Positions 1-21,979 of a stretch of DNA of 64,000 nt are shown here, in pieces (position 1 is the stretch's first letter; each line of letters opens with the position of its first letter). Below the pieces are notes generated by a model. It worked only from the letters and a program-made list of their open reading frames with translations. It was not told where the DNA came from and searched no databases. The DNA is from Ignavibacteriota bacterium (GTDB lineage Bacteria > Bacteroidota > Ignavibacteria > UBA10030): positions 1,888,001 through 1,952,000 of the forward strand of contig OY969585.1 in the NCBI GenBank assembly GCA_963701295.1. Direction: 5' to 3'. Both the position numbers and the translations under genes were made by a program.

Positions 1-2
1 GT

Positions 3-974: not shown

Positions 975-976
975 GT

Positions 977-4766: not shown

Positions 4767-4767
4767 G

Positions 4768-4800
4768 GCGCAGGATATGCAGTATGGTGCACATCTTGCA
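4768..4800 (+). promoter_or_regulatory. Putative enhancer (UAS) for a sigma54 activator
   Basis: GCGCA/TGCA boxes at 4768, 4778, 4788 and 4797 (about 10-bp phasing), upstream of a -24/-12 site. Confidence 0.55.
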
Positions 4801-4852
4801 CAAGTGAAGAAAAGGGATCCCTCATATCGAATAGATTTCCTAATCTTTTGTG

Positions 4853-4868
4853 TGGCATATGGATTGCA
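4853..4868 (+). promoter_or_regulatory. Sigma54 (-24/-12) promoter
   Basis: TGGCATATGGATTGCA = GG-N10-GC, about 60 nt before the ATG at 4928. Confidence 0.8.
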
Positions 4869-4927
4869 TCATTTTTTGTGAAATAATCCATATTTGTCAA
4901 AAAATGCCTATAAATTAGGAGAGAGAA

Positions 4928-6946
4928 ATGAAAAATAAATACTGGTTTTTTGCAGCAGCCGTATTAACGATAGCACTTATTTTTACTCAGTCCCTTTTTT
5001 CACAAACCGCGTTACCACCACATTCTCGAAATCAAATTAGGTTTATCTCTCAACCGCCTCAATATGGTCAACGCGGCGTTCCTTATTCCTATACGGCTCA
5101 AGCCGTCACTGCAGACACCACTGCGGTTATCAACTATTGTGCTGGTATTCTCAATCCCATTGGGCTGACAATTGATTCGATATCGGGTGTTGTCAATTGG
5201 ATCCCTGCAGCGAAAGGATGGTATCCAATTACCCTGATAGCGAGGTCGAATAAAGGAGGCAATGCCGTCCAATCTTTTATGGTGACAGTAGTCGGCGGCA
5301 ATGGTATTGTGCAAGGACAAGTGACGGATACATCAGGTAATAGCATTTCTAATATTATTATCGAAGTGCTGCAAGTTTTAAGCACAGATCCTATTCCTCT
5401 CAATACTATTTCTATCAGTAATGAATGTTATTCATACTCCGCAAAAACAGATAAAAATGGAATGTATCGGATTTCTCATATTGATCCCGGTACGTATAAA
5501 GTACGTGCAGTATCACCTACGCCCCAGTATCTAAGCCAGTGGTATGATGGACAGTCTGACGCTAAGGATGCGAATACGATCACTATTTCCGATTCTTCTT
5601 CTAATACTCCCACCGTGGTCAATTTTTCTCTTCGCGGTATTGTCAGATTGCCAAAGATTGCTGTATCAGGTATTGTTACCGATACGAATCTTCTTCCAAT
5701 AAAAGTTGCGAATATCTTTTTTGTACGATCCGGATTTGCGTTGAATACTAAGGACACTGTTGACGACTTCCGAGAATATTTCAACATGAATGCTATGAAG
5801 GACGATTGCAGACTCGAAGGAAAATCGCAGAATGTATACAGCGCCAAAACCGACTCGTCCGGTACGTATTCGCTTCAGATTCCACAGGGATCATATATTG
5901 CCTTTGCCAAAGCTCGGGGATATGCAACGGAATTCTATTTGGGACAATCCGATCTGCTGTCGGCAAATCAGATAGTACTGACACATGACAGCGCAGGTAT
6001 CAACTTCGCGCTTGCGCAGCTTCCAAAGGTTGTTCTTGGTACAATCACAGGGAGCGTGCTCGATTCAGCACAAGGTATCGGTGTTCCTTCCCGAATTATT
6101 GCATCTCGAGATCGATGGACTGTGAAAGATAAATTTAACTGCTTCCGCTCTTACGTCGTTGATACAGATTCCCTTGGTACATTTTCAGTCGATTCATTAT
6201 TACCGGGATCGTACTTTGTGTTTGCAGTACCGCTAGGTAATTATTCTCCTGCTTTCTATTCAACAGATACTACAAGTATACGATGGAAGAGAGCAACCAG
6301 AGTGGATATTAGTGGGAACACTGTTAATGATATCGATATTTATGTGCACGAGATTCCTGATTCCATGAATGGGTACTCCAGTATTTCTGGCGCTGTTCGT
6401 TTTTCATCGGGTTCCATCTCAATGGCAGGAGCCCTTGTCTATGCAGCAAATCGGAATTCCGTAGTCTCAGGATATGCAATCACGGATGAGAAGGGGAATT
6501 ACAATATAGAAGGCCTGGTTCCCGGTGCATATACCGTGTCGGTCGATAAGGTAGGATATGAGACAGCATCACAATCTGCTACCGTTTCCTACAGTGCCGC
6601 AGGAAATCTAAACGCCACTGTCGACCTGTCAATCGATGAAGTAGCCACAGGTGTGGCCCAAACTTCTTCAACACAGCAGCCGACGCAATTCATGCTTGAA
6701 CAAAATTTTCCGAATCCATTCAATCCATCAACAACGATTAACTACACATTGAATCAATCTGGCATTGTTACGTTGAAGGTGTATAATCTTCTTGGCCAAG
6801 AAGTGCGCACATTGGTCAATGGATTCCAAAATGCAGGAAGTTATCATACGATGTTTAATGCGCAAGGACTTTCCAGCGGTATCTATTTCTATCGCTTAAA
6901 AAATCAAAACAGCATTCAGACTCGGAAAATGATTCTCTTACAATAA
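4928..6946 (+). CDS. T9SS type A CTD protein with Ig-like and repeated carboxypeptidase-regulatory-like domains
   Basis: Signal peptide; repeated (I/V)xGxV...TD..G.Y modules; C-terminus QNFPNPFNPSTTI...SGIYFYRL...RKMILLQ; RBS AGGAG. Confidence 0.88.
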   Translation: MKNKYWFFAAAVLTIALIFTQSLFSQTALPPHSRNQIRFISQPPQYGQRGVPYSYTAQAVTADTTAVINYCAGILNPIGLTIDSISGVVNWIPAAKGWYPITLIARSNKGGNAVQSFMVTVVGGNGIVQGQVTDTSGNSISNIIIEVLQVLSTDPIPLNTISISNECYSYSAKTDKNGMYRISHIDPGTYKVRAVSPTPQYLSQWYDGQSDAKDANTITISDSSSNTPTVVNFSLRGIVRLPKIAVSGIVTDTNLLPIKVANIFFVRSGFALNTKDTVDDFREYFNMNAMKDDCRLEGKSQNVYSAKTDSSGTYSLQIPQGSYIAFAKARGYATEFYLGQSDLLSANQIVLTHDSAGINFALAQLPKVVLGTITGSVLDSAQGIGVPSRIIASRDRWTVKDKFNCFRSYVVDTDSLGTFSVDSLLPGSYFVFAVPLGNYSPAFYSTDTTSIRWKRATRVDISGNTVNDIDIYVHEIPDSMNGYSSISGAVRFSSGSISMAGALVYAANRNSVVSGYAITDEKGNYNIEGLVPGAYTVSVDKVGYETASQSATVSYSAAGNLNATVDLSIDEVATGVAQTSSTQQPTQFMLEQNFPNPFNPSTTINYTLNQSGIVTLKVYNLLGQEVRTLVNGFQNAGSYHTMFNAQGLSSGIYFYRLKNQNSIQTRKMILLQ

Positions 6947-6980
6947 ATCACACACTTTTTTAGTCGTTTGGCATTTGAAG

Positions 6981-7015
6981 AGGGCTGTCTCGATCTGAGA
7001 CAGCCCTATTTTTTT
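6981..7015 (+). terminator. Intrinsic terminator
   Basis: AGGGCTGTCTC-gatct-GAGACAGCCCT followed by AT7. Confidence 0.85.
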
Positions 7016-7018
7016 CTA

Positions 7019-7038
7019 TAGCGGGGGAGGGATTGAAC
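7019..7038 (-). repeat. attR-like displaced 3' fragment of tRNA-Met
   Basis: TAGCGGGGGAGGGATT is identical (16 bp) to 21906-21921, then GAAC after a 1-nt deletion. Confidence 0.85.
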
Positions 7039-7099
7039 TCAGTCTTAAATTCGAGACTCTTTTCAGTGATTTTCAATAAAAAACAAGAAATCATTAAGT

Positions 7100-7128
7100 T
7101 TGACATTACCATGCGATCTTACTATTAG
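7100..7128 (+). promoter_or_regulatory. Sigma70-like promoter at the island end
   Basis: TTGACA-N17-TATTAG. Confidence 0.4.
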
Positions 7129-7460
7129 CACATTATGGATATTGGGCTACTGGATGATCTTGGACTAAAAACATATATCTCTAGGCTAATATTACTTTCT
7201 ATATTAATAGAGTACATGAATAATCAAGAGGAGTATAAGATTATTTAAAACAGAAATTAAAAAAAAGAAGCCTATGATATTCATTAATATCTAACCGCAT
7301 ATCTATTGAAAAAAGGATCGATCCTATTTCTAAATGTACTTCTTATTCTCATTTTTCGGATTACCCATTGACTATCTTGATTTTAATGGCACAAAATAGT
7401 ATTTATGAATCGTTCTTAAAATAATTCAGGGTACATATTGATAGAGAATAAATTTTCTGA

Positions 7461-7482
7461 TACAATACAACATTGTGTTGTA
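7461..7482. promoter_or_regulatory. Palindromic operator-like site upstream of the ABC operon
   Basis: TACAATACAA-ca-TTGTGTTGTA (9/10 inverted repeat). Confidence 0.5.
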
Positions 7483-7516
7483 ATCAAACAATAATTCTCG
7501 GCCTTTCATCAATCCC

Positions 7517-8332
7517 ATGGAACTACACCAAAAATATTCCATCATCGAGGTTGCTCACCTTGTGAAGAAGTTTAAAGATTTCGCTGCGGTTGATAATATA
7601 TCGTTTTCTGTTGAAGCTGGAGAGATATTCGCGTTCTTGGGTCCCAATGGCGCAGGGAAATCCACGACCATCAAAATGCTTATTACGCTTCTTACACCTA
7701 CAAGCGGTACGGCTATAATTGATAGACACGATATTGCACATCATGCTTCCGAGGTACGTAAAACGATTGGTTATGTACCGCAGATGATTTCCGTGGATGG
7801 TACGCTCACAGCATACGAGAATCTTATGCTGATGGCGCGGCTCTACGATATTCCAAGAGCAGAGCGCAAAGAGCGCATCAAAGAGGTACTATTGTTTTTA
7901 AAGCTCGAGGAACAGACGGATTCACTTGTTAGAACGTTTTCCGGCGGTATGGTCCGCAAGATGGAAGTCGGGCAAGCCATGCTTCATCGTCCCAAAGTAT
8001 TGCTGCTCGACGAACCAACAACAGGACTTGATCCTGTTGCACGGCAAAATGTTTGGGAGCATCTTCTTGAGTTAAGGGACACCTTCGGTACGACTATCTT
8101 CTTCTCCACACATAATATGGAAGAAGCGGATGGAGTGAGCGATCGCATCGCTGTGATGAACAGGGGAACAATTGCTGCGATGGGGAATGCAGAAGAACTG
8201 AAGGCAAAAACCGGAAAGCTGAATGCCACGCTCGAAGAAGCTTTTATTTTCATTACCGGCAATAAGCTTCAGGAGACAGGCAACTTCCGAGAAATCCGCA
8301 GAGCAAGAAAAGTTGAACGAAGATTAGGATAG
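7517..8332 (+). CDS. ABC exporter ATP-binding protein (DrrA-like)
   Basis: GPNGAGKST, FSGGM, LLLDEPT. Confidence 0.93.
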   Translation: MELHQKYSIIEVAHLVKKFKDFAAVDNISFSVEAGEIFAFLGPNGAGKSTTIKMLITLLTPTSGTAIIDRHDIAHHASEVRKTIGYVPQMISVDGTLTAYENLMLMARLYDIPRAERKERIKEVLLFLKLEEQTDSLVRTFSGGMVRKMEVGQAMLHRPKVLLLDEPTTGLDPVARQNVWEHLLELRDTFGTTIFFSTHNMEEADGVSDRIAVMNRGTIAAMGNAEELKAKTGKLNATLEEAFIFITGNKLQETGNFREIRRARKVERRLG

Positions 8333-8349
8333 ATGATCATCAAATAAAT

Positions 8350-9126
8350 ATGTTTTACTATTTATTACAGACAATTAAAAAATCTTACGTGCTCGCTGAG
8401 ACAGAAACGCGCAAACTTCTCCATGATCCGACGGAACTCATCTCGCGTGCGATACAACCGATTCTCTGGCTGGGCATTTTTGGCGAAGCGATGAGTAAGG
8501 TACGAGCGATTCAGACACAAGGGTTGACATATCTTCAGTTCATTGCACCGGGAATTCTTACACAATCCGTCGTATTCGTTGCCATCTTCTACGGTCTTTA
8601 TATTATCATGGACCGAGATACAGGTATATTACAAAAACTCCTGGTTACACCAACGCCGCGCCTCGCATTGGTTTGGGGTAAAATGATTTCTGCGGGCATA
8701 AGAGGCTTAAGCCAGGCGCTCATTGTTTTCCTTTTTGCTATTATCCTCGGCATTCAATTGAATATCACTTTCTGGTCTATCTTCGGAGTAATCATTATTG
8801 TCATGCTTGGTGCGGGTTTTTTCACTGGCCTTTCCATGATTATCGCCTCGATTGTGAAAACCAGAGAAAGGTTCATGGGAATCGGCCAAGTAATTACGCT
8901 GCCATTATTCTTTGCCTCGAATGCTATTTATCCAATTTCAATTATGCCTGCATGGCTTCAAGCAGTAGCGAACGTAAATCCATTAAGTTATATGGTAGAT
9001 GGATTGCGCGCGCTCATGCTCTCAGGAAATATTTCGGGAGTAGGTTTCGATATCGGCATACTTGCTACTGCCACACTGCTTATTTCAATACTCAGTGCAT
9101 GGTTTTATCCAAAGGTGGTGATATAA
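8350..9126 (+). CDS. ABC-2 type permease
   Basis: About 6 TM helices; YLQFIAPGI; NPLSYMVDGLR. Confidence 0.92.
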   Translation: MFYYLLQTIKKSYVLAETETRKLLHDPTELISRAIQPILWLGIFGEAMSKVRAIQTQGLTYLQFIAPGILTQSVVFVAIFYGLYIIMDRDTGILQKLLVTPTPRLALVWGKMISAGIRGLSQALIVFLFAIILGIQLNITFWSIFGVIIIVMLGAGFFTGLSMIIASIVKTRERFMGIGQVITLPLFFASNAIYPISIMPAWLQAVANVNPLSYMVDGLRALMLSGNISGVGFDIGILATATLLISILSAWFYPKVVI

Positions 9127-9129
9127 ACT

Positions 9130-9702
9130 ATGGAAAATTTGACCATTGATAAATCAAAGACAGCATTGGTTGCCATCGATCTCCAAAAAGGTGTTGCCGG
9201 ACGACAAACTGTTCCATATGCACCCGATATTGTAATAAAAAATGCTGCAATGCTTGCGGAGGCATTTAGAAAAAATAGCATGCCTGTATTTTTGGTACGA
9301 GTGACTCCTTCGCTGGACGGGAAAGACGCGTTACGTCCTATTGCTGATGCGCGAAGGCCGATACAAACTCCTCCATCAGATTGGGCAGAAATTGTTCCAG
9401 AGATGGGGCCGAAGCAAAGTGATTTCGTGATCACCAAACATCAGTGGGGAGCTTTCTACGGTACAGAGCTTGATTTGGAATTTAGAAGACGCGGCATAAC
9501 AACAATGGTTCTGTGCGGAATAGCGACCAATTTTGGTGTTGAGAGCACAGCTCGATTTGCTTATGAGTATGGATACCAGCAAATATTTGCAGAAGATGCC
9601 ATGGCCGCTATGTCGGTCGAAGAACATACATTTCCGATCACAAAAATATTTCCGCGCATTGGACTTGTAAGGAAAACCTTAGAAATATTGGCTAGCTTGT
9701 AA
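9130..9702 (+). CDS. Isochorismatase-family hydrolase (YecD-like)
   Basis: TALVAIDLQ, KHQWGAFYGT, GIATNFGVESTAR. Confidence 0.9.
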   Translation: MENLTIDKSKTALVAIDLQKGVAGRQTVPYAPDIVIKNAAMLAEAFRKNSMPVFLVRVTPSLDGKDALRPIADARRPIQTPPSDWAEIVPEMGPKQSDFVITKHQWGAFYGTELDLEFRRRGITTMVLCGIATNFGVESTARFAYEYGYQQIFAEDAMAAMSVEEHTFPITKIFPRIGLVRKTLEILASL

Positions 9703-9868
9703 TTTAGAAAAATCCTCGCAGGTACGCAAAGTAAAGAGGTACCTTAAAATTGTCCATACTAAGACCCTCGCCGCAGAGAAGAAGTTGTTGTAGAGGTTGA
9801 TCGGTTGAAGCATGAGATGGATAAACAGGTGACGAAGTATTAATATATTTAAAGAGGAGATGAAATAT

Positions 9869-10879
9869 ATGAACACACGATTTCTCGGAAATACCGGAGT
9901 AAGAGTCTCCGAACTTTGTTTCGGCGCTATGACTTTCGGCGGCAAGGGTTACTGGAAGAATATTGGACAGGTAGAACAGAAAGAAGCCGACGAACTGGTG
10001 AACACAGCAATAGAGGGTGGAATAAACTTCTTTGATACCGCGAACGTGTATTCTGAAGGACGGTCTGAAGAAATCCTCGGCAAAGCGCTCGGCAATAGGC
10101 GGAGAGACATTGTCCTCGCAACGAAGGTCAGAGGGAGAACTGGCACCGGCCCTAATGATGTTGGCCTTTCACGAAAGCACATTATCGATTCCTGCAATGC
10201 GAGTCTCAAGAGACTCGGCACAGATTACATAGATCTGTACCAGGTTCACAGTTTCGATCCATGGACTCCGCTTGATGAGACCCTCCGAACTCTTGATGAT
10301 TTAGTAAGGGAGGGGAAAGTAAGATACATCGGGGCGTCCAATTTTACGGGCTGGCAATTGATGAAAGCGCTAGCCATCTCCGAAAAACAAAACCTTGGGA
10401 AATTTGTAACGCTTCAGGCATTATATTCCCTGATCGCCCGCGACCTTGAGAACGAGCTTGTTCCGCTCTCGCTTGATCAAAAACTCGGGATTCTTCCCTG
10501 GAGTCCGTTGGGCGGTGGCTTTTTAACAGGAAAGTACCGACGCGGCATGCCGCGGCCGGAAGGTGCTAGAAGATCTGACCCGACCAATCAATTCCTCCAA
10601 TTCGATGAAGAAAAGGGATTCGACATTGTAGATGAGCTGGAGAAAATAACTCGTAACCATGGCACAACGATTACGCAGGCAGCGCTGAACTATCTGCTCA
10701 GGAAACCCGGTGTTACTTCAGTCATAATCGGCGCAAAAAATAAAGAGCAACTCACCGACAATCTCAAAACTGTTGATTGGGAGATGACCGCTGAAGAAGT
10801 CGTTCGACTCGATGAGTTGAGCAAGCCGCCTAAGGTGTATCCATACTGGATGCTCGAAAGGATGTCGATGGACAGATGA
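9869..10879 (+). CDS. Aldo/keto reductase
   Basis: DTANVY, ATK, DYIDLYQVH, PWSPLGGG; start chosen by GAGGAG spacing. Confidence 0.92.
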   Translation: MNTRFLGNTGVRVSELCFGAMTFGGKGYWKNIGQVEQKEADELVNTAIEGGINFFDTANVYSEGRSEEILGKALGNRRRDIVLATKVRGRTGTGPNDVGLSRKHIIDSCNASLKRLGTDYIDLYQVHSFDPWTPLDETLRTLDDLVREGKVRYIGASNFTGWQLMKALAISEKQNLGKFVTLQALYSLIARDLENELVPLSLDQKLGILPWSPLGGGFLTGKYRRGMPRPEGARRSDPTNQFLQFDEEKGFDIVDELEKITRNHGTTITQAALNYLLRKPGVTSVIIGAKNKEQLTDNLKTVDWEMTAEEVVRLDELSKPPKVYPYWMLERMSMDR

Positions 10880-10886
10880 GGTGTCA

Positions 10887-11657
10887 ATGAAACTCAAAGA
10901 TAAAATTGCAATTGTTACAGGTGGCGGGCGCGGAATCGGAAAAGCAATCGCCGAGGCCTTTGCCCGCGAAGGAGCGAACGTTGTCGTCACCGCAGCGCGG
11001 CAGAGAAACGAAATCGAACAGGTCGCGTCGAAAATTGGCGGCACCGCCGTCTTATCGAATGTTTCGAATAAAGACGATGTACGGAAACTTGTCGATTCTG
11101 TCGTCTCGGAATTCGGCAGAATCGACATACTGGTCAACAATGCCGCGCGAGGAATGAAATTTGTCAATGAGAGTTTTATGACGGAATCGAAGCCTTTCTG
11201 GGAAGCGGATCCTGACATGTGGCGGATGGTCATAGACACAAACATAAGCGGTGTTTTCCTGATAACTCGAGCAGTGATCCCTCACATGCTTGAGCAAAGA
11301 TTTGGAAGGATCATCAATATTTCGATTAATCATGAAACGATGAAGCGCAAAGGGTTCACTCCTTATGGTTCGTCTAAGGCAACGCTCGAATCGATGAGCG
11401 CTATCTGGGCACTGGAATTGGAAGGCACGGGAATAACTCTCAACGTCTTACTCCCCGGTGGGGCGACAAACACTGGAATGATTCCGGACACATTTCCAGA
11501 ACCTAAAAGAAAAGAGCTAATTGATCCCGCCATAATGGGACCGCCTGCAGTTTATCTGGCTTCAGATAATGCAAGTGGGATCAACGGACAACGGATAATT
11601 GCGATTGAATGGAAAGAACACAAAGTGACCAGCAATAAAAAAGCTTTTGAATTTTAA
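10887..11657 (+). CDS. Short-chain dehydrogenase/reductase
   Basis: TGGGRGIG, LVNNA, YGSSK; ATG after GAGGTG. Confidence 0.92.
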   Translation: MKLKDKIAIVTGGGRGIGKAIAEAFAREGANVVVTAARQRNEIEQVASKIGGTAVLSNVSNKDDVRKLVDSVVSEFGRIDILVNNAARGMKFVNESFMTESKPFWEADPDMWRMVIDTNISGVFLITRAVIPHMLEQRFGRIINISINHETMKRKGFTPYGSSKATLESMSAIWALELEGTGITLNVLLPGGATNTGMIPDTFPEPKRKELIDPAIMGPPAVYLASDNASGINGQRIIAIEWKEHKVTSNKKAFEF

Positions 11658-11690
11658 GAATTACGAGTAAATATTTTAACGGAAGAAATA

Positions 11691-12677
<987 letters not shown>

Positions 12678-12812
12678 AACAAAATTAAAATGGGCTGCCC
12701 CAAAATTATATATCGATATTGAGTTAGTATATTTTCATTTTGATTGTGCTGTAATGATGTATACACGTCGAGACATCATATGGCATTTGTAGATTAAGCC
12801 GTAACAGTGAAA

Positions 12813-12885
12813 TCGTGGGTTCGTAACTGGGTCATGAAAAAAAAGAGACCGAATCTTTTCAGAATCGGCCGAAAAAGTAGCGGGG
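12813..12885. repeat. Island junction 2: right arm, A-tract/hairpin and GTAGCGGGG core
   Basis: 12813-12847 matches 21841-21875 at 27/35; both arms start 64 bp before the core. Confidence 0.75.
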
Positions 12886-13552
12886 TCCGCCACGTACTGC
12901 CGGGAAAGACTCATATTTCTGCATCTCCTGCTGAAATCAGCACTTCAAAATGGGAAACATCCCCCTTTTCGTATCATAAGCATGCTTCTCGGTTAATTCG
13001 GTTAATAGAACCCTCTGCATCTGAGTTACAATCGCCTGAAACCAGAACACTCTTTTCTTGTATCTCTTTAATTACTGAAATCCTTTTAGAATAGGCATTC
13101 AATCGCTCGAATCGGAGCGGGATCAATACCTCAAGGACTTTGGTTCAAATAGATTCAGCTTTGTTCGTGAAATTGCAGAACGGGTTGTCGAACAAAATTC
13201 CAATATGACCAGAGTTAGCGAACGAAGTGAAGCTAACTATGTTGTCAAATTGAGGATCCCGCTAATGAGCATATCCCAAGAAAGCGGGACAATCAACTAA
13301 TTCAAAAACTCGAATCGCTGATAGGAGAGGGCGTGCCATTCTGACTTTATCTTACAAATACATTTCGCGTTTCCCCACCCTCATTATTTCAGATTTTTCC
13401 CTGTCGATAATGCAGCACTTGTGCCCATAAAAGGATTAATCCCTTTTTCATCCCTTAGACCTATTTCCGATTAAACAAATAGTCAGTATTCTTTTTAAAC
13501 TAAAAATATAAAGTGTTAACTCCTGAAGGTAGCTGGCAATATTCTTTTCGTT

Positions 13553-13686
13553 GCTTGACTAAAAATAAGTTGACGGATGAATCGGGGTAAAGAGAAGTAT
13601 TTATTGGATGAGATGTGTGGAATGTGAGATAGATGAAAAGGCGAAGAAGAATTGATATGCCGCAACTTATGCGCCATCCGTTAGGC
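13553..13686 (+). repeat. Degenerate solitary attC-like site
   Basis: GTTAGGC (GTTRRRY) at 13680. ATAAGTTGaCGG (13565) pairs with CCGCAACTTAT (13660) with one bulged base. The left box GCTTGAC is degenerate. Confidence 0.45.
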
Positions 13687-13733
13687 GGCTAATATTGTGT
13701 AAAATATTTCATAATCATTTAGGGAAACATGAA

Positions 13734-15419
13734 ATGAAAACACACTTATTATTTCTATCATTTTACTTAGTTTTTTTTGCAAGTATTAGATTATTTGCTT
13801 TTAGCGGAAGCGGTTCTGGTACTTCCGGCGATCCGTATTTGGTTACATCAGCTTCACAAATTGATGAAGTGCGAAACAATCTAACTACTTATTACAAACA
13901 AACTATTGATATCGATATAAGCGGTTATTCTAACTGGTCGAAGATCGGAACAACTACAACCGCCGGTACTAATTTTATAGGTACTTATGACGGCAATGGG
14001 TATAAAATTACAGGACTTATTATTACTTCCACTACTGATAGCTACAACGGTTTATTCGGTGTTATAGGTTCTGGAGGAACAGTAAAAAATCTTGGTGTGA
14101 CAGGAGCAAGTGTATCCAGTAGTACTGCAGGACTTGGAATACTTGCAGGTTATAATTATGGAGGTACCGTTGAAAATTGTTATTCAACCGGTACTGTTAC
14201 AAGCAGCGGCAATAATGCCGGCGGGCTTCTTGGAACGACATCAGGTGCGGTGATGGAATGCTATTCTTCTGCAAACGTTACCGCAAATGGAACGTCTTCA
14301 ACAAATATTGGGGGCTTGATAGGAAACAGTAATTCGGGAGCTTCAATAAGCCAGTGCTATTGTACAGGGAATGTAATGAATAATGGTACAAGTGTTATTT
14401 CTATAACAGGGGGATTTATAGGAATTGCAAGTTGTTCTATAGATAATTGTTATTCATCTGGCAATGTTCAGAACAGCACTGGAAGGGCAGGAGGGTTTAT
14501 GGGTGGCACTGGCGCTAATACTCCTGCAATTACAAATTGTTATTCAGTAGGACATGTGACCGCCGCAACCCAAGGTGGTTTTGTTGGTTATTATAATACG
14601 GGTACTTTTACCAGTTGTTATTTCGATTCCGATAAAGCGGGAATGACAAATACTTATGGGGGATATGTGACTTCCGCCCCCACTGGCATAACAGCCAAAA
14701 CTACAGCAGAAATGAAAACGCAATCTACATTTACAGATGCCGGCGGGAATTTTACAACTACATGGGAAATTGTTTCAGGGTTTTATCCGCGATTAAAAAG
14801 TATTCCGGACCCTGCACTTCCTGTTGAGCTTACTTTTTTTATTGCATCCGTCAGCGGCAATACTGTTGCTCTACGTTGGAACACAGCAACCGAAGTGAAC
14901 AACTACGGCTTCGAGATCGAACGCCGAGCAATCGTCAATCAGAACCTCTCCATCTCCTCCCCTAATAGGGGAGGGCTAGGGTGGGGTTGTATTGGTTTTG
15001 TGGCTGGTAACGGGACGAGCAATGCACCAAAAGAATATTCATTTATGGATATTACAGGCGCTGCGGGAAGTTATGTTTATCGGCTAAAACAAATTGATCA
15101 GGACGGTTCTTTCAAATACTCTCAATCAGTTGAAGTTACTACACAAGCGCCGAAACAATTTTCGCTTGCTCAAAATTATCCGAATCCATTCAATCCCACT
15201 ACGACAATAGAGTTTACACTAGCAGAAAACAGCAATGTAACTCTCAAAATATTTGATATTCTTGGTCGGGAAGTGACAACGCTGGTTGATGGGGGACGAA
15301 AAGTGGGAGTATCTTATAAAGAAAACTTTGATGCTTCAAAATTGGCATCGGGATTATATTTCTATCGTTTACAAACAGAAAAGAATTCGTTGGTAAAAAA
15401 ACTGATGCTGCTAAAATAG
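13734..15419 (+). CDS. GLUG-motif beta-helix protein with T9SS type A CTD
   Basis: Signal peptide; FSGSGSGTSGDPY, GTYDGNG, repeated GGxxG...CYSxGxV; LPVEL; QNYPNPFNP. Confidence 0.85.
   Translation: MKTHLLFLSFYLVFFASIRLFAFSGSGSGTSGDPYLVTSASQIDEVRNNLTTYYKQTIDIDISGYSNWSKIGTTTTAGTNFIGTYDGNGYKITGLIITSTTDSYNGLFGVIGSGGTVKNLGVTGASVSSSTAGLGILAGYNYGGTVENCYSTGTVTSSGNNAGGLLGTTSGAVMECYSSANVTANGTSSTNIGGLIGNSNSGASISQCYCTGNVMNNGTSVISITGGFIGIASCSIDNCYSSGNVQNSTGRAGGFMGGTGANTPAITNCYSVGHVTAATQGGFVGYYNTGTFTSCYFDSDKAGMTNTYGGYVTSAPTGITAKTTAEMKTQSTFTDAGGNFTTTWEIVSGFYPRLKSIPDPALPVELTFFIASVSGNTVALRWNTATEVNNYGFEIERRAIVNQNLSISSPNRGGLGWGCIGFVAGNGTSNAPKEYSFMDITGAAGSYVYRLKQIDQDGSFKYSQSVEVTTQAPKQFSLAQNYPNPFNPTTTIEFTLAENSNVTLKIFDILGREVTTLVDGGRKVGVSYKENFDASKLASGLYFYRLQTEKNSLVKKLMLLK
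14943..14988. repeat. In-frame palindromic REP-like insertion
   Basis: CCTCCCCTA-A-TAGGGGAGG core with imperfect AACC...GGTT outer arms. Confidence 0.65.
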
Positions 15420-15426
15420 ATGATGG

Positions 15427-15594
15427 ATAACGGTACATGAAAAAAAAGGCTGAGAAAATATCCCAGCTATTTTCATTCTTCATTCTAAAATCTACCATCT
15501 GAAATCCTTTGTAGCGGGGGGGCGAACTGTTGCGAACTCATACGCGAATTTGAAGCTCCTTTCAGCGATTTTATGTAAATTTCAACGAAAGTAA
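15427..15594. repeat. Island junction 3: right arm, heptamer tract, GTAGCGGGGG core and left arm
   Basis: TAACGGTACATGAAAAAAAAG resembles 12824-12845; core at 15511; 15535-15585 matches 7036-7086 at 35/51. Confidence 0.75.
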
Positions 15595-15602
15595 TCTTTA
15601 AT

Positions 15603-15631
15603 TTGACTTTTTTTGAAACTTTTATTATAAT
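15603..15631 (+). promoter_or_regulatory. Sigma70 promoter of tetR
   Basis: TTGACT-N17-TATAAT. Confidence 0.8.
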
Positions 15632-15657
15632 TAGACCGTAATACGAATATAGTCGAA
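15631..15657. promoter_or_regulatory. Putative TetR operator 1
   Basis: TTAGACC-N13-AGTCGAA overlapping the predicted transcription start. Confidence 0.65.
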
Positions 15658-15666
15658 AGGACTAAA

Positions 15667-16239
15667 ATGAACAAAGATGATATTATCAGAGCCGAAATTT
15701 TAAAAGCTGCCGAATATGTTTTTCAGAAATGGGGATTGAATAAGACCACAATGGAGGATATTGCTCGCGAAGCAGGTAAAGGAAAAAGTACTCTTTATTA
15801 TTATTATCTGAGTAAAGAAGAAATATTTGATGCCGTAGTTATTGGTGAGTTTGCGCAGATACTTAAAAAAGCGAAAGAACTAGCGGAAGAAACAAAAACA
15901 GCAAAAGAAAGATTGATCAAATATATCGTCGAGTCGATTAATGAAATGAAAAACAGGGTCAGCACCTATACTATTGTACATGAAGAAATTAGGCGCAATC
16001 AAAATTTCATTAAAAAATTGCGCGATAAGTTTCAGGCACAAGAAGAAAGATACATCGAGGAGATATTGAAGGTTGGTTTGAAAAACAAAGAATTTACATT
16101 TATCGATAAAAGTGAAGTAACAACAGCTGCAAAAACAATCACAGGAATGATGCATGCGCTAGAGCTTTATTTGTTATTGGAAAATGATGATACCGCTCAA
16201 ATTGACATCGCTGCCCGTTTTATCGCAAATGGACTTTAA
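15667..16239 (+). CDS. TetR/AcrR family regulator
   Basis: TTMEDIAREAGKGKSTLYYYY HTH. Confidence 0.93.
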   Translation: MNKDDIIRAEILKAAEYVFQKWGLNKTTMEDIAREAGKGKSTLYYYYLSKEEIFDAVVIGEFAQILKKAKELAEETKTAKERLIKYIVESINEMKNRVSTYTIVHEEIRRNQNFIKKLRDKFQAQEERYIEEILKVGLKNKEFTFIDKSEVTTAAKTITGMMHALELYLLLENDDTAQIDIAARFIANGL

Positions 16240-16257
16240 GTTTTTTTTTGTCAATAA

Positions 16258-16284
16258 TTCGACCATAATACCGTATTGGTCTAA
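16258..16284. promoter_or_regulatory. Putative TetR operator 2
   Basis: TTCGACC-N13-GGTCTAA, same layout as operator 1. Confidence 0.65.
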
Positions 16285-16303
16285 TAATCCAAAGGATACA
16301 ATT

Positions 16304-17341
16304 ATGAAAAATAAAAAGAATCAACTTGTCATTTTCTTTATTGGAATCGCACTTTCTGTGTGTGGCTGTTCCGGTAATTCTGGCGATCAAAATAATACTT
16401 CTGTTAAGGTTCAGGTTGAAAAAGTAAAACCCGCCGATGTAAGTCAGGAGCTTTCATACAGCGGCACCATCGAAGAATCCGAAACCATTCCGCTTAGTTT
16501 TTCTTCGGTAGGAACTGTGTCGAAAGTATTTGTTTCCGAAGGTGCAATTGTAAGGAAGGGACAAATCCTTGCGGAATTAGACAATGCAACGTATCAAAAT
16601 ACCTATGCTATGATGCATGCGTCCGAGGAGCAGGCAGAAGATGCTTTTAAACGCTTAACGCCGATGCATAATAATGGTAATCTGCCGGATGTAAAATATG
16701 TAGAAGTGGAAACCGGCTTGCAAAAAGCAAAAGCGGGAGCATCCATTGCAAGGAAAAATTTGGATGACTGCAAGTTATATGCAACCACCGATGGACATAT
16801 CGGTAAACGATCCATCGAGCCCGGCATGACCGCTATGCCGAACCTCACTTCGATTACGATTGTGAAAATAAACAAAGTGTTTGCCCGTGTATCGGTTTCG
16901 GAGAATGAAATTGCACAAATTCACAAAGGGCAAAAAGCAAATATAACAATTGGCGCATTGGGATCTGTGATCTATAATGGCGTGGTGGAAGAAATCGGTG
17001 TTGTTGCGGACCCAATAGCACATTCGTATAAAATAAAAATTGGAATAGAGAACAAAGATTTATCCATCAAGCCGGGGATGATCTGTTCTACAATCATTGA
17101 AAGCCCAAACGCATTCCACGGTGTCGTTGTTCCGAGCAGAGCGGTTATGATCGATGAGTCGGGAAAGAATTTTGTATATGTCGTTTCATCACAAAACAAA
17201 GCAATGCGCAAATATATTCTCACCGGTCAGTTGCTGAACAGCGGTATTGAAGTACTGGATGGATTACAAATGAACGATACGATCGTTGTGGAAGGCCAAC
17301 ATAAACTCATTGAAAACGCCTTTGTGCAAATTGTGAATTAA
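16304..17341 (+). CDS. RND efflux membrane fusion lipoprotein
   Basis: Signal/lipobox, GTVSKVFVSEG, IKPGM; start moved to the ATG after AAGGA. Confidence 0.9.
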   Translation: MKNKKNQLVIFFIGIALSVCGCSGNSGDQNNTSVKVQVEKVKPADVSQELSYSGTIEESETIPLSFSSVGTVSKVFVSEGAIVRKGQILAELDNATYQNTYAMMHASEEQAEDAFKRLTPMHNNGNLPDVKYVEVETGLQKAKAGASIARKNLDDCKLYATTDGHIGKRSIEPGMTAMPNLTSITIVKINKVFARVSVSENEIAQIHKGQKANITIGALGSVIYNGVVEEIGVVADPIAHSYKIKIGIENKDLSIKPGMICSTIIESPNAFHGVVVPSRAVMIDESGKNFVYVVSSQNKAMRKYILTGQLLNSGIEVLDGLQMNDTIVVEGQHKLIENAFVQIVN

Positions 17342-20300
17342 TGGCAAACGGAAAGTACATGAAAATGGAAAAGAAACTTACATTGCTCGAAAGGCTTCTG
17401 CGGTACAAACAGGTGCTGTATATTTTTTCTGTGATCGCCGTTCTTATAGGAGTTGTGGCCCTCTTCCAGATGCCGCGCGATGAATATCCAACATTTACTG
17501 TACCAACAGGTCTCATCGTTGGTGTGTTCCCTGGTGCCTCTTCTCATCAGGTAGAAGAACAATTGACAGCTAAAGTAGAGAATTATCTGTTCCAGTATAA
17601 GTCGGTTGATCGCTCCAAGACGTATTCCGTTTCAAAAGAGAACGTCATGCTCATTTACGTTCAGGTCTCAGATGCTGAAAAGGATAAAGATGGATTTTGG
17701 GCGAAATTGCGCCATGGCTTGAATGATTTGAAAGTAGAACTGCCTGCCGGAGTAACTTCTTTGACAGCGGATAATGATTTCGGTAGTACGTCTGCAATGC
17801 TGCTTGCCGTTCAGTCTGAGACAAAGACATATAAAGAACTTGAAAATTATATTAAATCTTTTGAAGACGATGTTCGTAAAGTACCGTCGGTCTCTAAAGT
17901 AAAACATTACGGCCTACAGAAAGAACAAATCAGTATTTACATGGATGATGCCAAGCTCGCTAATTATGGCATAAAACCTATTCAGGTCCTTATTGCTCTT
18001 AAGCCGCAAAGCACCGTAAATTATGTGGGGGAGATAGATGATGGTAAATATGTGCGTCCGATCCATATTACCTCAAACCTTAAAACCGAACAGGATGTAG
18101 CCAGCCAAATTATTTATTCCGATCCGCAAGGCAATGTTGTACGCGTCAAGGATATTGCAAAAGTAGTGCGTGAATATGAGGATATGGATTCCTATATCCG
18201 TGTCAACGGAAAAAAATGCCTGCTTGTTTCGCTTGAAATGAAATCAGGGGAGAATATTGTCCAATTTGGTGATGCAGTACAAAAAGCCATTGATAAGTTC
18301 TCTGTCATACTTCCACCTGATATAAAGATCATCACTATTTCCAATATCCCCAATGTCGTGTCGAAAGCTATTGCAAATTTTCTCAAAGAATTTGCCATTG
18401 CAATGTTAGCTGTAATATTGGTTACTGTCCTTCTGCTTCCATTAAGAGTTGCCCGTATTGCGGCAATGTCAATTCCAACTTCTATACTGACAGCTATCGG
18501 GATCATGTGGATAAATGGAATAGAGCTGCAAACCGTTTCACTAGCAGGTTTAATTATTGTCCTTGGTATCACTGTGGATGATGCTATCGTTATAGTCGAT
18601 AATTATATAGAGAAGTTGGATCAGGGTATGACCCCGTTCGATGCTGGAACAAAAAGTGTAACCCAGCTCTTTAGTTCCGTGCTTTCCGCTACGCTTATTA
18701 TCATAGCGTGTTTTTTGCCGATGCCGATATTTATGACCGGTCAGGGTGGAGATTTTATCCAATCACTTCCGACGACCATTATGTATGCATTGCTCATATC
18801 ATTGCTGCTTTCAGTCTCTATTATACCCTTGTTAAGTTACACATTCATTAAAACAGGTATAAAAGGTAATTCATTTAAAAAAGGGAAAGTGACATTTCTC
18901 GATAGACTTCAGAAATTTTATAACGGACTTCTTGAGAAAGCGTTTAAAAGGAAAAAACTGGTGGTCCTTGCAGGTGGTCTTTCGTTCATCACAGGACTTG
19001 CATTGATTGCGGTTACTCCGCAGCAGTCATTCCCAAAACTTGAAAGGAACCAGTTTGCAGTGGAAGTATTTCTGCCCATCGGAAGTTCTCTGCAAAAAAC
19101 AGATTCTGTTATCACAGATCTTGAGGGAATACTTCAAAAAGACTCGCGCGTTCAAGTCGTGACGTCATTTATTGGAACAAGCTCACCACGTTTTAATGCT
19201 CTCTATGCACCCAATTTTCCTGCAAAGAATTATGGTCAATTGGTTGTGGTCACGGAATCGAACAAGGCTACAGTTGAAATTCTCGACGAGTACAGCAAGA
19301 AATTGGAAGGCAAATATCCCCTTGCCAATATAAAATGGAAGCAATTGGCTTTCGAAATATTCAAGGCTCCAATTGAGATCCGTATTTCGGGAGACAGCAT
19401 CCAAACCAACAAACAGACAGCAAATCGTGTCTCTGATATTTTGCGGCAATTCAAGGATCTCGAATTCATACGCACTGATTATGAACAACCTTTGCAATCT
19501 GCCGATCTGGTCGTAAGGAGAGATGAAGCAGCGCGGATTGGTTATTCGAATTCGCTTCTGGCTTATTCGCTTATGGTGGGAACCAAAGGATTCCCGATCT
19601 CAACCGTATGGGAAGGAGATTATCCCGTTATTGTGAAGTTAAAAATCAATAAAAAGATCAAATCCAGTCCCAGTGATATCATGAATCAATATGTGACCTC
19701 TCCATTTATGTTCTCCTCTGTTCCGGTTCGTCAGTTGGCAACAATAAAGCCAGGTTGGACAGAAGGAGAAATTGTGCGGCGTAACGGAGTACGAACCATA
19801 ACTGTTTTTGCAGAAATAAAAAGAGGATTACTTCCTGCAACGATATTTAGTAAAATCAAACCTCTTGTCGATAAAATGGACTTGCCTCCCGGCGTTTCGA
19901 TCGAATACGGCGGCGATTATCAAATGAGCATTGAGAATATTACGCCGATGTACTATTCACTTATAGTAAGTATCACCCTGATATTTCTTATCCTTATGTT
20001 TCAATTCAAGAATATTAAAACAACGCTTTTGATCATGGTGACGCTCCCGCTAAGTGTCTTCGGCGTCGCGTTTGGTGTGTTTGTAACAGGATATCCATTC
20101 GGGACAACGGCGTTTATTGGATTGATCGGCTTAATGGGAATCGTTGTACGAAATGGAGTAATATTTGTTTCGTATGCAGAAGAACTTCGTTACGAGCATG
20201 GACATTCATTAGAAGAAGCGGCGATCTCGGCAGGTAAGAGAAGAATGCGTCCGATATTTCTTACTTCGGCCGCTGCCGCAGTAGGCGTTATTCCGATGAT

Positions 20301-20454
20301 TGTGAGCGGTTCTTCGCTGTGGGGACCGCTTGGTACTGTAATATGTTTCGGGCTGCTTTTTGCACTTGTGCTCTCATTGCTGGTGCTGCCCGTGCTGTAC
20401 TATTTGTTCCACAGAAAAGATTTTGAAAAAGTTGAAGAAAGTGAGACACTATGA
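17341..20454 (+). CDS. RND efflux permease (AcrB/AcrD/AcrF family)
   Basis: 1037 aa; VDDAIVIVDN; RMRPIFLTS. Confidence 0.95.
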   Translation: MANGKYMKMEKKLTLLERLLRYKQVLYIFSVIAVLIGVVALFQMPRDEYPTFTVPTGLIVGVFPGASSHQVEEQLTAKVENYLFQYKSVDRSKTYSVSKENVMLIYVQVSDAEKDKDGFWAKLRHGLNDLKVELPAGVTSLTADNDFGSTSAMLLAVQSETKTYKELENYIKSFEDDVRKVPSVSKVKHYGLQKEQISIYMDDAKLANYGIKPIQVLIALKPQSTVNYVGEIDDGKYVRPIHITSNLKTEQDVASQIIYSDPQGNVVRVKDIAKVVREYEDMDSYIRVNGKKCLLVSLEMKSGENIVQFGDAVQKAIDKFSVILPPDIKIITISNIPNVVSKAIANFLKEFAIAMLAVILVTVLLLPLRVARIAAMSIPTSILTAIGIMWINGIELQTVSLAGLIIVLGITVDDAIVIVDNYIEKLDQGMTPFDAGTKSVTQLFSSVLSATLIIIACFLPMPIFMTGQGGDFIQSLPTTIMYALLISLLLSVSIIPLLSYTFIKTGIKGNSFKKGKVTFLDRLQKFYNGLLEKAFKRKKLVVLAGGLSFITGLALIAVTPQQSFPKLERNQFAVEVFLPIGSSLQKTDSVITDLEGILQKDSRVQVVTSFIGTSSPRFNALYAPNFPAKNYGQLVVVTESNKATVEILDEYSKKLEGKYPLANIKWKQLAFEIFKAPIEIRISGDSIQTNKQTANRVSDILRQFKDLEFIRTDYEQPLQSADLVVRRDEAARIGYSNSLLAYSLMVGTKGFPISTVWEGDYPVIVKLKINKKIKSSPSDIMNQYVTSPFMFSSVPVRQLATIKPGWTEGEIVRRNGVRTITVFAEIKRGLLPATIFSKIKPLVDKMDLPPGVSIEYGGDYQMSIENITPMYYSLIVSITLIFLILMFQFKNIKTTLLIMVTLPLSVFGVAFGVFVTGYPFGTTAFIGLIGLMGIVVRNGVIFVSYAEELRYEHGHSLEEAAISAGKRRMRPIFLTSAAAAVGVIPMIVSGSSLWGPLGTVICFGLLFALVLSLLVLPVLYYLFHRKDFEKVEESETL

Positions 20455-21794
20455 AAAAGTATATTATAATTTGCTTGATCTGGATATGTGCGTTTCCTGT
20501 TTTTGCTCAGCGAGCGTTGACATTGGACGAAAGCAAACAGCTTGCACTGCAGAACAACGCTAAGATAAAAAATGGCGCGCTGGAAATAGAGTCAACGCAG
20601 CAAACAAAAAAGGCAGCGTTCACAAATTTCTTTCCATCAATCAGTGCCAGCGGAGCAATGTTTGAAGCGCAGAAGAACTTAATGGAAATATCTACGCAAG
20701 GCGGTAATCTTCCTATCTATGATGGAAAAGACCTTGCTGCTCTTTCTACGGCAACACAGTTTGCGTATATGCCGGCTTCAACTATGGGATTGCTGAAATC
20801 GGGAACGTTCGGTATGGTTACGGCCGTGCAGCCGATCTTTGCCGGTGGCAGAATCTGGAATGGCAATAAACTTGCGTCACTGGGCGAAGATATCAGCGAG
20901 TACAAGAACCGGCTTTCCCGAAACGAAGTGATTCTGAAGACAGAAGAACAGTATTGGTTGGTGGTATCATTGAATGAAAAATTCAAAACCATACAACGAT
21001 ATGAAGAACTGTTAAACGATTTATTAGCGCAAGTAGAAGATGCTTATAAATCCGGTGTGGCAATGAAAAACGATCTGCTCAAGGTAAAAGTGAAGCGTAG
21101 TGAAGTTCTTCTCAATAAATCAAAATTGGAAAATGGCCGAAAACTCGCAACAATGGCGTTTTGCCAGTATATCGGCATCCCGTTCGATTCGGCATTGGTG
21201 TTAAAGGACTCGTTAGTGGTAAATCAACTTCCTCAAACATATTTCATCGATCATTCTGCGGCACTTAACAATAGATCGGAATATCATTTGTTGCAAGCAT
21301 CTGTACGAGCAGAGGAATTACAGACCAATATAAAACTTGGAGAGTATTTACCACAAGCCGGTATCGGCGTGAGCGGCCTGTATATGAAGTTGGATGAAGG
21401 AAAAGATCGAACTATTGGAATGGTTTTTGGTACTGTTTCTATTCCGATTTCTGATTGGTGGAGTGCATCGCACACTCTGCAGGAGCAGAGCATTAAAGAA
21501 CAGATTGCGCAGAACATGATGAAGGACAACTCGGAATTACTGCTGCTGCAAATGCAAAAAGCTTGGCAAGATTTATCCGATGCATACAAACAATTATTAT
21601 TGAGTGAAGAAGCAAAAGCGCAGGCAGAAGAAAATCTAAAAGTGAACCAAGATAGTTTTAATAATGGTATGAGCAATCTTTCTGATTTACTGGAAGCGCA
21701 GGCGCTGCTGCAGCAGATGAATGATCAGTTGATAGATGCCAGGGCAGGATATCGAAGTAAGCAGATTATGTACTTGCAGGTAACAGGAAGATAG
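20451..21794 (+). CDS. TolC family outer membrane channel
   Basis: Signal peptide; QPIFAGG, SIPISDWW, DLLEAQ; ATGA overlap. Confidence 0.92.
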   Translation: MKKYIIICLIWICAFPVFAQRALTLDESKQLALQNNAKIKNGALEIESTQQTKKAAFTNFFPSISASGAMFEAQKNLMEISTQGGNLPIYDGKDLAALSTATQFAYMPASTMGLLKSGTFGMVTAVQPIFAGGRIWNGNKLASLGEDISEYKNRLSRNEVILKTEEQYWLVVSLNEKFKTIQRYEELLNDLLAQVEDAYKSGVAMKNDLLKVKVKRSEVLLNKSKLENGRKLATMAFCQYIGIPFDSALVLKDSLVVNQLPQTYFIDHSAALNNRSEYHLLQASVRAEELQTNIKLGEYLPQAGIGVSGLYMKLDEGKDRTIGMVFGTVSIPISDWWSASHTLQEQSIKEQIAQNMMKDNSELLLLQMQKAWQDLSDAYKQLLLSEEAKAQAEENLKVNQDSFNNGMSNLSDLLEAQALLQQMNDQLIDARAGYRSKQIMYLQVTGR

Positions 21795-21870
21795 CCGTCT
21801 ATTTTCATATTCTATATTTTATTTTTTGCACAAGTTTAAGTCGTAGGTTTGTATCGGGGTGAAGAAAATA

Positions 21871-21904
21871 AAAAGGCGAATTCAAAACGGATTCGCCTTT
21901 TTTT
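21871..21904. terminator. Bidirectional terminator (efflux operon / tRNA-Met)
   Basis: AAAAGGCGAAT-N9-ATTCGCCTTTT with A and T tracts. Confidence 0.8.
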
Positions 21905-21905
21905 G

Positions 21906-21979
21906 TAGCGGGGGAGGGATTCGAACCCACGACCTGCGGATTATGATTCCGACGCTCTAACCAGCTGAGCTACCCCGCC
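21906..21979 (-). tRNA. tRNA-Met (CAT), probably elongator
   Basis: GGCGGGGTAGCTCAGCTGGTTAGAGCGTCGGAATCATAATCCGCAGGTCGTGGGTTCGAATCCCTCCCCCGCTA; CCA not encoded. Confidence 0.93.

Follow-up and report, generated by a model that had tools for sequence, protein, structure and literature searches.

Recombinase-free cassettes in tandem at the 3′ end of a tRNA-Met gene of an Ignavibacteriota bacterium, with CcrB-like large serine recombinases as candidate enzymes

Organization of the locus

The window analysed here is a 64-kb stretch of the genome of an Ignavibacteriota bacterium (contig OY969585.1, positions 1,888,001 to 1,952,000, forward strand), in which gene cassettes lie in tandem behind the 3′ end of a tRNA-Met gene. 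The source genome, designated G000, is a single contig of 3.64 Mb with a completeness of 99.3%; related genomes are numbered from G001 onward. The array is marked by an 8-nt core, TAGCGGGG, which is the reverse complement of nt 66–73 of the tRNA-Met. The core is present in four exact copies in the window, all on the plus strand, at 7019, 12878, 15512 and 21906, and a G precedes it at 12877, 15511 and 21905. These four positions agree with the preliminary description of this DNA, as do the three units that the cores delimit, of 5859 bp (unit 1), 2634 bp (unit 2) and 6394 bp (unit 3). Over both strands G000 has 26 copies of the core, the expectation being about 0.05 per strand in 15 kb; the 16-bp match at 7019 has two occurrences only. 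The features of the locus are as follows:

1..7018, plus strand: U0, the right part of a further unit, with a sigma-54 regulator, a protein kinase and a protein sorted by the type IX secretion system (T9SS) (Pfam); ends in a hairpin at 6981–7007
7019..7110, plus strand: core (7019–7026) and left arm of family LA1, with a core-to-motif spacing 6 nt under the usual
7517..12677, plus strand: unit 1 cargo, comprising an ABC ATPase, an ABC-2 permease, an isochorismatase-family protein, an aldo/keto reductase, an SDR protein and a second aldo/keto reductase
12813..12877, plus strand: right end of type RA, with an A-tract and a hairpin, terminator-like on the tRNA strand (fold z=-1.5)
12878..13005, plus strand: core and left arm of family LA3, 77.5% identical over 129 nt to the LA3 arm of G008
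13695..15419, plus strand: unit 2 cargo, a 574-aa GLUG-motif protein with a T9SS C-terminal sorting domain
15440..15511, plus strand: right end of heptamer type, with a minus-strand hairpin and T run (15449–15467) followed by a 7-bp-periodic tract
15512..15631, plus strand: core and left arm of family LA1, its motif in attP-type register
15667..21794, plus strand: unit 3 cargo, comprising a TetR regulator, a membrane-fusion protein, an AcrB-family transporter and an outer-membrane efflux protein (Pfam)
21841..21905, plus strand: right end of type RA′, with a degenerate inverted T-arm copy and a degenerate core (21852–21859)
21905..21979, minus strand: tRNA-Met(CAT), elongator-like; the core is its last 8 nt (21906–21913), and its T arm is a predicted attB half-site

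A second tRNA-Met gene of G000, at 1811584, has the C1 mismatch and GGG/CCC stem of an initiator; the assignment of the two genes as elongator and initiator follows the usual tRNA identity rules. A search with Rfam found tRNAs alone.

The cargo ORFs (open reading frames) of the array include no recombinase by Pfam, as the preliminary description had stated. It had also remarked that the cargo is co-oriented, and in fact all ten cargo ORFs are on the plus strand. As a special signal this orientation was set aside, being weak against the replichore baseline: 255 of 287 ORFs point toward the tRNA, compared with 237 of 286 and 189 of 302 as the baseline for G000 on this replichore. Unit 3 contains a sigma-70-like site (TTGACT-17-TATAAT, 15603–15631) after its LA1 arm. 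The protein of unit 2 was compared with 15 other genomes of the genus, in which the sorting domain alone was matched. In the same unit, positions 13096–13198 hold a non-coding piece of 100 bp with an inverted repeat, of which copies with 83–91% identity occur, several per genome, in eight other genomes of the genus.

The array extends to the left of the first core of the window. U0 has, up to the core, 88% identity to contig C16 of G010 and 86% to contig C16 of G009, and its left arm lies at G000:1872176, 16 kb before the window. The hairpin at 6981–7007 is therefore the end of another unit and not the flank of an empty site. Thus position 7019 is not the edge of the array, and the terminator at 6981–7015 does not flank an empty site, as had been proposed for both. 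Relative to G010, four large genes with a shared 1.2-kb repeat are inserted within U0 (G000:C1 1872797–1887598), and their N-termini look sensor-kinase-like.

Left and right ends of the units

The similarity of the unit ends was compared with random intergenic DNA. The right ends at 12813 and 21841, each 64 bp before the G of a core, match at 27 of 35 positions, a value reached by none of 20000 random pairs. The left arms at 7035 and 15534 match at 35 of 51 positions, with 3 of 4000 null pairs as good; the null maximum was 51/51, which means that the background contains repeats. Both similarities had been noted before. On the other hand, the sequence at 15427, presented at that time as a third related right arm, gave a best match of 15/25, and 707 and 654 of 1500 null pairs were as good; this likeness lacks significance and was rejected. 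The end of unit 2 belongs instead to the heptamer type, a class that recurs in other genomes.

In the RA end of unit 1, positions 12813–12823 are an 11-nt inverted copy of the T-arm segment 21922–21932 of the tRNA and are followed by a degenerate core (12824–12831). Right ends of the RA class were found at 15 junctions. The RA′ end carries the terminator hairpin of the tRNA (fold z=-3.7 on the tRNA strand). The inverted T-arm copy with its core, present in G001, G002, G004, G009, G012 and the window (12813–12831 and 21841–21859), stands about 54 bp before the outer core within RA ends. At five junctions the inverted T-arm copy abuts the core directly and would form, with the tRNA, a symmetric attB-like site.

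Distribution in related genomes and movement of the TetR-RND unit

With one junction as the query, a DNA search gave matches in 16 of the 86 genomes of the family, namely G000, 13 of the 15 other species of the genus, and two of the three of one further genus. Units were delimited in selected stretches around tRNA-Met and arm matches, a unit being one that starts with a left arm. This gave 43 units from 14 genomes: 37 have no trace of a serine or tyrosine recombinase, six have fragments of the end of a large serine recombinase (LSR) gene only, and none has an intact gene. The arrays of G002 and G019 reach about 80–90 kb. No empty site was seen at the loci fetched from the genus; in seven genomes of other genera, backbone genes lie within about 1–5 kb of the tRNA-Met. 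As had been predicted, the content varies between relatives and the breakpoints coincide with the cores. The right ends are heterogeneous, most of them with a terminator-like hairpin or heptamer tract. They fall into nine classes, which are joined with the left-arm families in many pairings, as expected if the core is the exchange point.

Unit 3, the TetR-RND unit, had been considered the newest, and it is the unit proximal to the tRNA. In G001, G005, G009 and G012 the alignment starts at its core and stops no more than 25 bp short of the next one; in G004 it runs to the end of the contig. The length of the unit, 6390–6402 bp, with both ends kept, is constant in five species. The identity of unit 3 to G000 does not follow that of the core genes: 94.7% against 80% in G012, 86.0% against 93% in G001, 82.8% against 94% in G004, 81.8% against 82% in G005, and 73.4% against 93% in G009. 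In addition, the tree of the part of unit 3 common to the six genomes rejects the core-gene topology (approximately unbiased test, p=1e-6). The left flanks of the unit are of five kinds in the six genomes, those of G001 and G009 being alike, and in the 30 bases left of the core G000 shares 6 to 10 with each other genome.

Adjacent units are also shared. G001 and G005, which are distant by core genes, have in common unit 3 and the next unit on its right. In G012, unit 3 is followed by a unit with an LA1 arm and a Fic gene that is 94.6% identical to a unit of G002 ending in an LSR remnant. These shared neighbours may be read as signs of movement in cis. The preliminary description had left a choice between mobile non-autonomous cassettes and decayed islands, and each is true in part: six of the 43 units keep LSR-end fragments, as decayed islands would, and the TetR-RND unit, which has no recombinase, has passed between species.

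A CcrB-like large serine recombinase as candidate enzyme

Elements with matching ends that encode a recombinase, which the preliminary description had suggested searching for, exist in the relatives. In G005 and G007, NCBIfam flagged a CcrB-like protein at the tRNA-Met end. The LSR frame reads across the core, enters the antisense T arm, and has its stop at the anticodon loop. At this same tRNA end the gene is intact in G005, G007 and G011, and split in two frames in G012. The proteins have Resolvase and Recombinase domains, an invariant YxRxS serine motif, and CxxC. Their best score is 137.7 bits, against a CcrB/CcrC cut-off of 900, and the nearest solved structures are those of SPbeta and other serine integrases, with weak E-values.

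Matches to the LSR at E<=1e-20 were found in 17 of 61 genomes, G000 not being among them. A protein search, PF07508, PF00239, tblastn with 10 LSRs and a six-frame profile found neither an LSR nor a remnant of one in G000, nor any serine recombinase; the best six-frame value was E=0.14, aside from matches to antisense tRNA tails. The homologues come mostly from records titled Ignavibacteria or Bacteroidota. From the genome collection, 54 LSR loci were obtained, and their 46 near-full-length genes were examined. An antisense tRNA 3′ end is abutted by 31 of these (17 Met, 6 Leu, 6 Glu and 2 Pro); of the remaining 15, several terminate at a core that non-tRNA DNA follows, or where the contig stops.

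The helper elements of G005, G008, G011, G012, G019 and G052 have a common module of 6–7 kb ahead of different LSR types, with the genes Lin1244_N, PolX-thumb, YdjM, KaiC-like and AAA_16. The helper ORFs scanned included neither a relaxase nor a conjugation gene at E<=1e-8, and the flanks of 38 loci no second, DsiA-like serine recombinase. In about 14 of these 38 loci a small ORF of 36–100 aa, with a helix-like pattern shared by eye, lies directly before the LSR gene (e.g. L034:11910–12120), and it is a candidate directionality factor. Contig C3 of G056 (L097, L098) contains two copies of a 2.1-kb LSR sequence, 99.95% identical and separated by 32.7 kb. One copy lies at the tRNA and the other at an internal junction, and the protein has a different C-terminus at each.

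Pairing of the arms with the enzyme and geometry of the sites

Half-sites were read outward from a centre between core positions 8 and 9, inside the G run. A register test of 14 left halves against seven families of right halves (98 pairings; 300 shuffles, with a floor of p=0.003) gave six pairings at p<0.02, five of them at offset 0 with p=0.003. In these five, LA1 (37 arms) is paired with the G011-type LSR end, LA3 with the G005-type end, and the arm of G056 with the G056 end; the tRNA half is paired with two mirrored-T-arm ends. Among the 23 Met-type LSR ends, the partners of LA1 are L180 and L175, and the best partners of LA2 and LA3 are L184 (the G012 end, 13.9/18) and L214, respectively, all at offset 0. 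The LSR 3′ end, core and left arm are joined directly in G002, G006, G011, G012 and G019.

A CGAAC motif is common to LA1, which is the commonest family of left arms, the G011-type LSR end and the tRNA half; it starts at position 14 in the first two and at position 9 in the third. Serine integrases as a rule have the binding motif nearer the centre in attB, by 5 bp, than in attP, according to the sections of PMC3783163 consulted. The predicted sites follow this attP/attB geometry, the 5-bp shift being present for LA1 only. In the window, the LA1 arm at 15512 is in register; the LA1 arm at 7019 is short by 6 nt, and the LA3 arm at 12878, a degenerate mirror of the G005-type LSR gene end, by 1 nt.

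The notion that the RA, RA′, RD and heptamer ends are remnants of LSR genes was discarded, as none gave a blastn match to the 23 LSR ends. The LSRs of L084 and L082 (G012:C8 and G011:C11) are about 90% identical and differ in the last 37 bp, which mirror LA2 and LA1, respectively; thus an att arm can be swapped on the same enzyme. In contig C5 of G006, at about 202100–202300, a junction of LSR end, core and LA1 is inverted within the array.

Proposed mechanism and alternative explanations

We consider it moderately probable that the cassettes of the locus, which have no recombinase, were stacked in tandem at the 3′ end of tRNA-Met by successive insertions, made by the CcrB-like LSR of helper islands that are now missing, and that they were carried in cis with these helpers. 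The left arms resemble LSR ends and the TetR-RND unit is found end to end in distant relatives; therefore the cassettes likely travel with passing helper islands. The left arm would be the P′ half of attP, the T arm of the tRNA the B′ half, and the right end of a cassette a B-like half. A helper would land at the tRNA, between the resident cassette and the tRNA. Its P arm and the P′ arm of the cassette would then make a normal attP, by which helper and cassette could excise as a composite circle, and this circle would integrate at the tRNA-Met of the next host. Later the helper would excise alone and leave the cassette against the tRNA, as in the window. The crossover is predicted near nt 65/66 of the tRNA, so that each unit would bring the 3′ strand of the acceptor stem and a terminator. 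Such a course would use normal serine-integrase reactions alone, with presumed catalytic steps. All that it needs is a left arm that is conserved and a right end that is tolerant and bears a terminator, and both are seen.

Several observations weigh against this mechanism. No intact helper, from left arm to LSR, lies on one contig, and the delimited units have no intact recombinase (0/43). Contigs from seven sequencing runs (20 runs contain small shares) presented no junction proving excision and no circle. The out-of-register arms at 7019 and 12878 may be dead. The three right ends of the window have no in-register match to the sampled LSR gene ends or left arms, for which reason their role as B halves is one that we infer. 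LA2 also matches four other LSR ends at z>3, and the pairing of arm and LSR is therefore not one to one. Of four LA3 junctions, two have an A at core position 8, which leaves the crossover dinucleotide without an exact assignment. Neither unit 1 nor unit 2 was recovered whole from the 15 other genomes of the genus, and the cargo of unit 1 is a mosaic of two blocks found separately in relatives. The tetR genes of G000 and G012 are 82.9% identical, compared with 95–97% for both arms, and homologous exchange therefore acts within cassettes too. For G012 a contamination of 7% is listed, and its unit 3 and core genes are on different contigs.

Movement of single cassettes in trans was also considered. 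The LSR of a helper located anywhere in the cell would excise one unit between successive cores as a circle and insert it at a tRNA-Met end, the cassettes being minimal and non-autonomous, and the array would be reshuffled in the manner of an integron. The 37 units without recombinase trace and the constant length and paired ends of unit 3 in five species speak for this, as does the occurrence of the same arm types at the initiator tRNA and at displaced sites of G000; moreover, Ccr-type enzymes recombine non-canonical site pairs, as stated in the sections of PMC3783163 consulted. However, the junction of a single-unit circle would lack an in-register inverted repeat, and the shared pairs of adjacent units point to movement of blocks. 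With respect to arm polarity, the order of unit 3 and an egtB-like/ABC block in G009 is the reverse of that in G012, as single movement would allow, but the swapped block is part of larger mosaic units and not a unit of its own. Joins across unit ends had been proposed as a sign of such circles. The one from 21903 to 12882, found in two runs, has other letters between, with 85% likeness, and does not establish a circle junction. We regard movement in trans as unlikely. Equally unlikely is an integron-like serine system, in which cassettes that never had a recombinase, with an attP half at left and an attB-like half plus tRNA terminator at right, would be shuffled singly in trans by several LSR types and traded across the genus. 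In this reading the LSR types would have the final 8 nt of both tRNA-Met genes, initiator and elongator, as a common site, and mirrored T arms would rebuild a perfect attB in some cassettes.

The units could instead be immobile fossils, that is, decayed islands that arrived with their own LSR and were later shared by homologous recombination between arrays, with the arms as homology. The LSR-end fragments kept by six of the 43 units suggest such an origin, together with the two out-of-register left arms of the window, the mosaic cargo and swapped tetR allele as products of homologous exchange, and the lack of a detected serine recombinase in G000. This is quite unlikely. One and the same recombinase-free structure is found for unit 3 in five species, between flanks that are unrelated on either side, and the RA and RA′ ends, which are conserved, do not derive from any of the LSR genes sampled. 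The construction of the array by a tyrosine integrase is very improbable. There are 14 Phage_integrase matches in G000, and in G014 the same tRNA-Met is adjoined by a tyrosine recombinase gene; nevertheless, no tyrosine recombinase gene of G000 is at a TAGCGGGG core, which led us to reject its 14 matches as the driver, and the arms mirror LSR gene ends with serine-integrase geometry. A second contig of G014 has a copy of the tRNA up to the anticodon loop, which is a different footprint. The G014 gene (L046:13578–14588) is accompanied by RadC beside the tRNA-Met, and with the tRNA half copy on the other contig (L047:1825) it represents a second, unrelated type of element.

Comparison with known systems

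The preliminary description had likened the array to an integron. An integron holds a cassette array at one site, the newest cassette nearest, with IntI beside attI, attC sites, and promoterless cassettes. Here there is no recombinase in or beside the array, and no IntI, attI or attC was found at the locus (attC was not searched with a model). The candidate enzyme, a serine recombinase, is not resident, and the units are multi-gene, with at least one, the TetR-RND cassette, having its own promoter-like site. The likeness to an integron was therefore not retained.

The closest known systems are the ssrA islands of Dehalococcoides with the recombinase DsiB and the composite staphylococcal cassette chromosomes (SCC). 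The array works like these, but it falls outside the ssrA islands, SCC and integrons by target, module and enzyme. According to the sections of McMurdie et al. 2011 (PMC3146451) consulted, the ssrA islands stand in tandem in the 100 kb that follow the 3′ end of a structural RNA gene, and the CcrB-like gene is on the opposite strand, overlaps att, and has its stop in the RNA gene or the next island, an arrangement seen here in the helpers of relatives and not in G000. The same sections report many islands without an integration module, which were proposed to be cis-mobilisable. They differ in the target, which is tmRNA with a 20-bp repeat from the T loop, and here is tRNA-Met (in the clade also Leu, Glu and Pro) with an 8-bp core; in the share of recombinase-free islands, which is 15/31 there and 37/43 here; and in a six-gene module with DsiA, RecF-like, ParBc and Mom, which is not present in the helpers described above. 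In a further difference from the ssrA islands, one target serves three LSR end types here, each with mirrored arms of its own. DsiB was compared by its published description, no Dehalococcoides record being among the 54 LSR loci.

SCC, pseudo-SCC (psi-SCC) and enterococcal cassette chromosomes (ECC) also use a large serine recombinase and an 8-bp conserved core, with half-sites as degenerate inverted repeats (PMC13739063 and PMC6222049, sections consulted). SCC and psi-SCC, from the same sections, form tandem cassettes split by internal att sites, and include att-bearing elements without recombinase. Their target is the 3′ end of rlmH with the core TATCATAA, and not tRNA-Met. The ccrAB/ccrC organization is not found here: there is one LSR, with 137.7 bits against 900, and its gene overlaps the att site.

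In the cis-mobilizable elements (CIMEs) and the accretion of streptococcal ICEs (integrative and conjugative elements) and IMEs (integrative and mobilizable elements), the integrase is lost and both att sites are kept, newcomers enter at the target-proximal site, and elements are moved with a neighbour, as given in the sections of PMC5704250 consulted. By its sequence the locus has the structure of CIMEs, with att-flanked units and no integrase or transfer genes. The serine-recombinase IMEs of the same sections disrupt their target gene, and here the tRNA is restored. The tycheposons of Prochlorococcus, in the sections consulted of bioRxiv 10.1101/2020.12.28.424599, place cargo at tRNA genes, have copies split by tRNA fragments, and push older copies inward as newcomers arrive; they differ in that 910 of 937 use a tyrosine recombinase, and in that they carry their own integrase and have partial tRNA repeats of about 40 nt.

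The general arrangement is thus already published, this kind of hotspot being known from Dehalococcoides and staphylococci. What sequence comparison adds is a candidate enzyme clade, a pairing of arm to enzyme with attP/attB geometry, and evidence for the passage of a recombinase-free unit between species. No description of such a system in Ignavibacteria was found in the literature covered, most subscription journals being outside that coverage, and the word 'tRNA' is absent from the main text of Durrant 2022 (PMC10083194).

These results offer an explanation for the build-up of a hypervariable region of tens of kb in an uncultured Ignavibacteria-type genus, in which an efflux operon without a recombinase has passed between species about 80% identical in core genes. 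Such units would be missed by island finders that require an integrase, such as TIGER/Islander (PMC12424338). The clade provides LSRs with predicted attP/attB pairs in conserved tRNA genes, and so the idea of cis-mobilisation from Dehalococcoides becomes directly testable. The enzymes are also candidate integration tools that restore their target.

Arms and cores at other sites

The same or related arms occur in a second array, behind the initiator tRNA-Met, and at several junctions with no tRNA-Met nearby. These sites of G000:C1 lie at 1.70–1.81, 2.40–2.46, 2.76–2.82 and 3.13 Mb. Their cores are all on the leading strand, the skew having its minimum near 0.97 Mb and its maximum near 2.65 Mb. 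At 2.79–2.82 Mb, about 27 kb matches a unit of the tRNA-Met array of G002. In addition, mini-units of 120–160 bp, formed by a core, a GC-rich palindrome and a terminator, stand directly against a tRNA or junction in L035, L038, L048, L111, L116 and G000:1811428–1811585.

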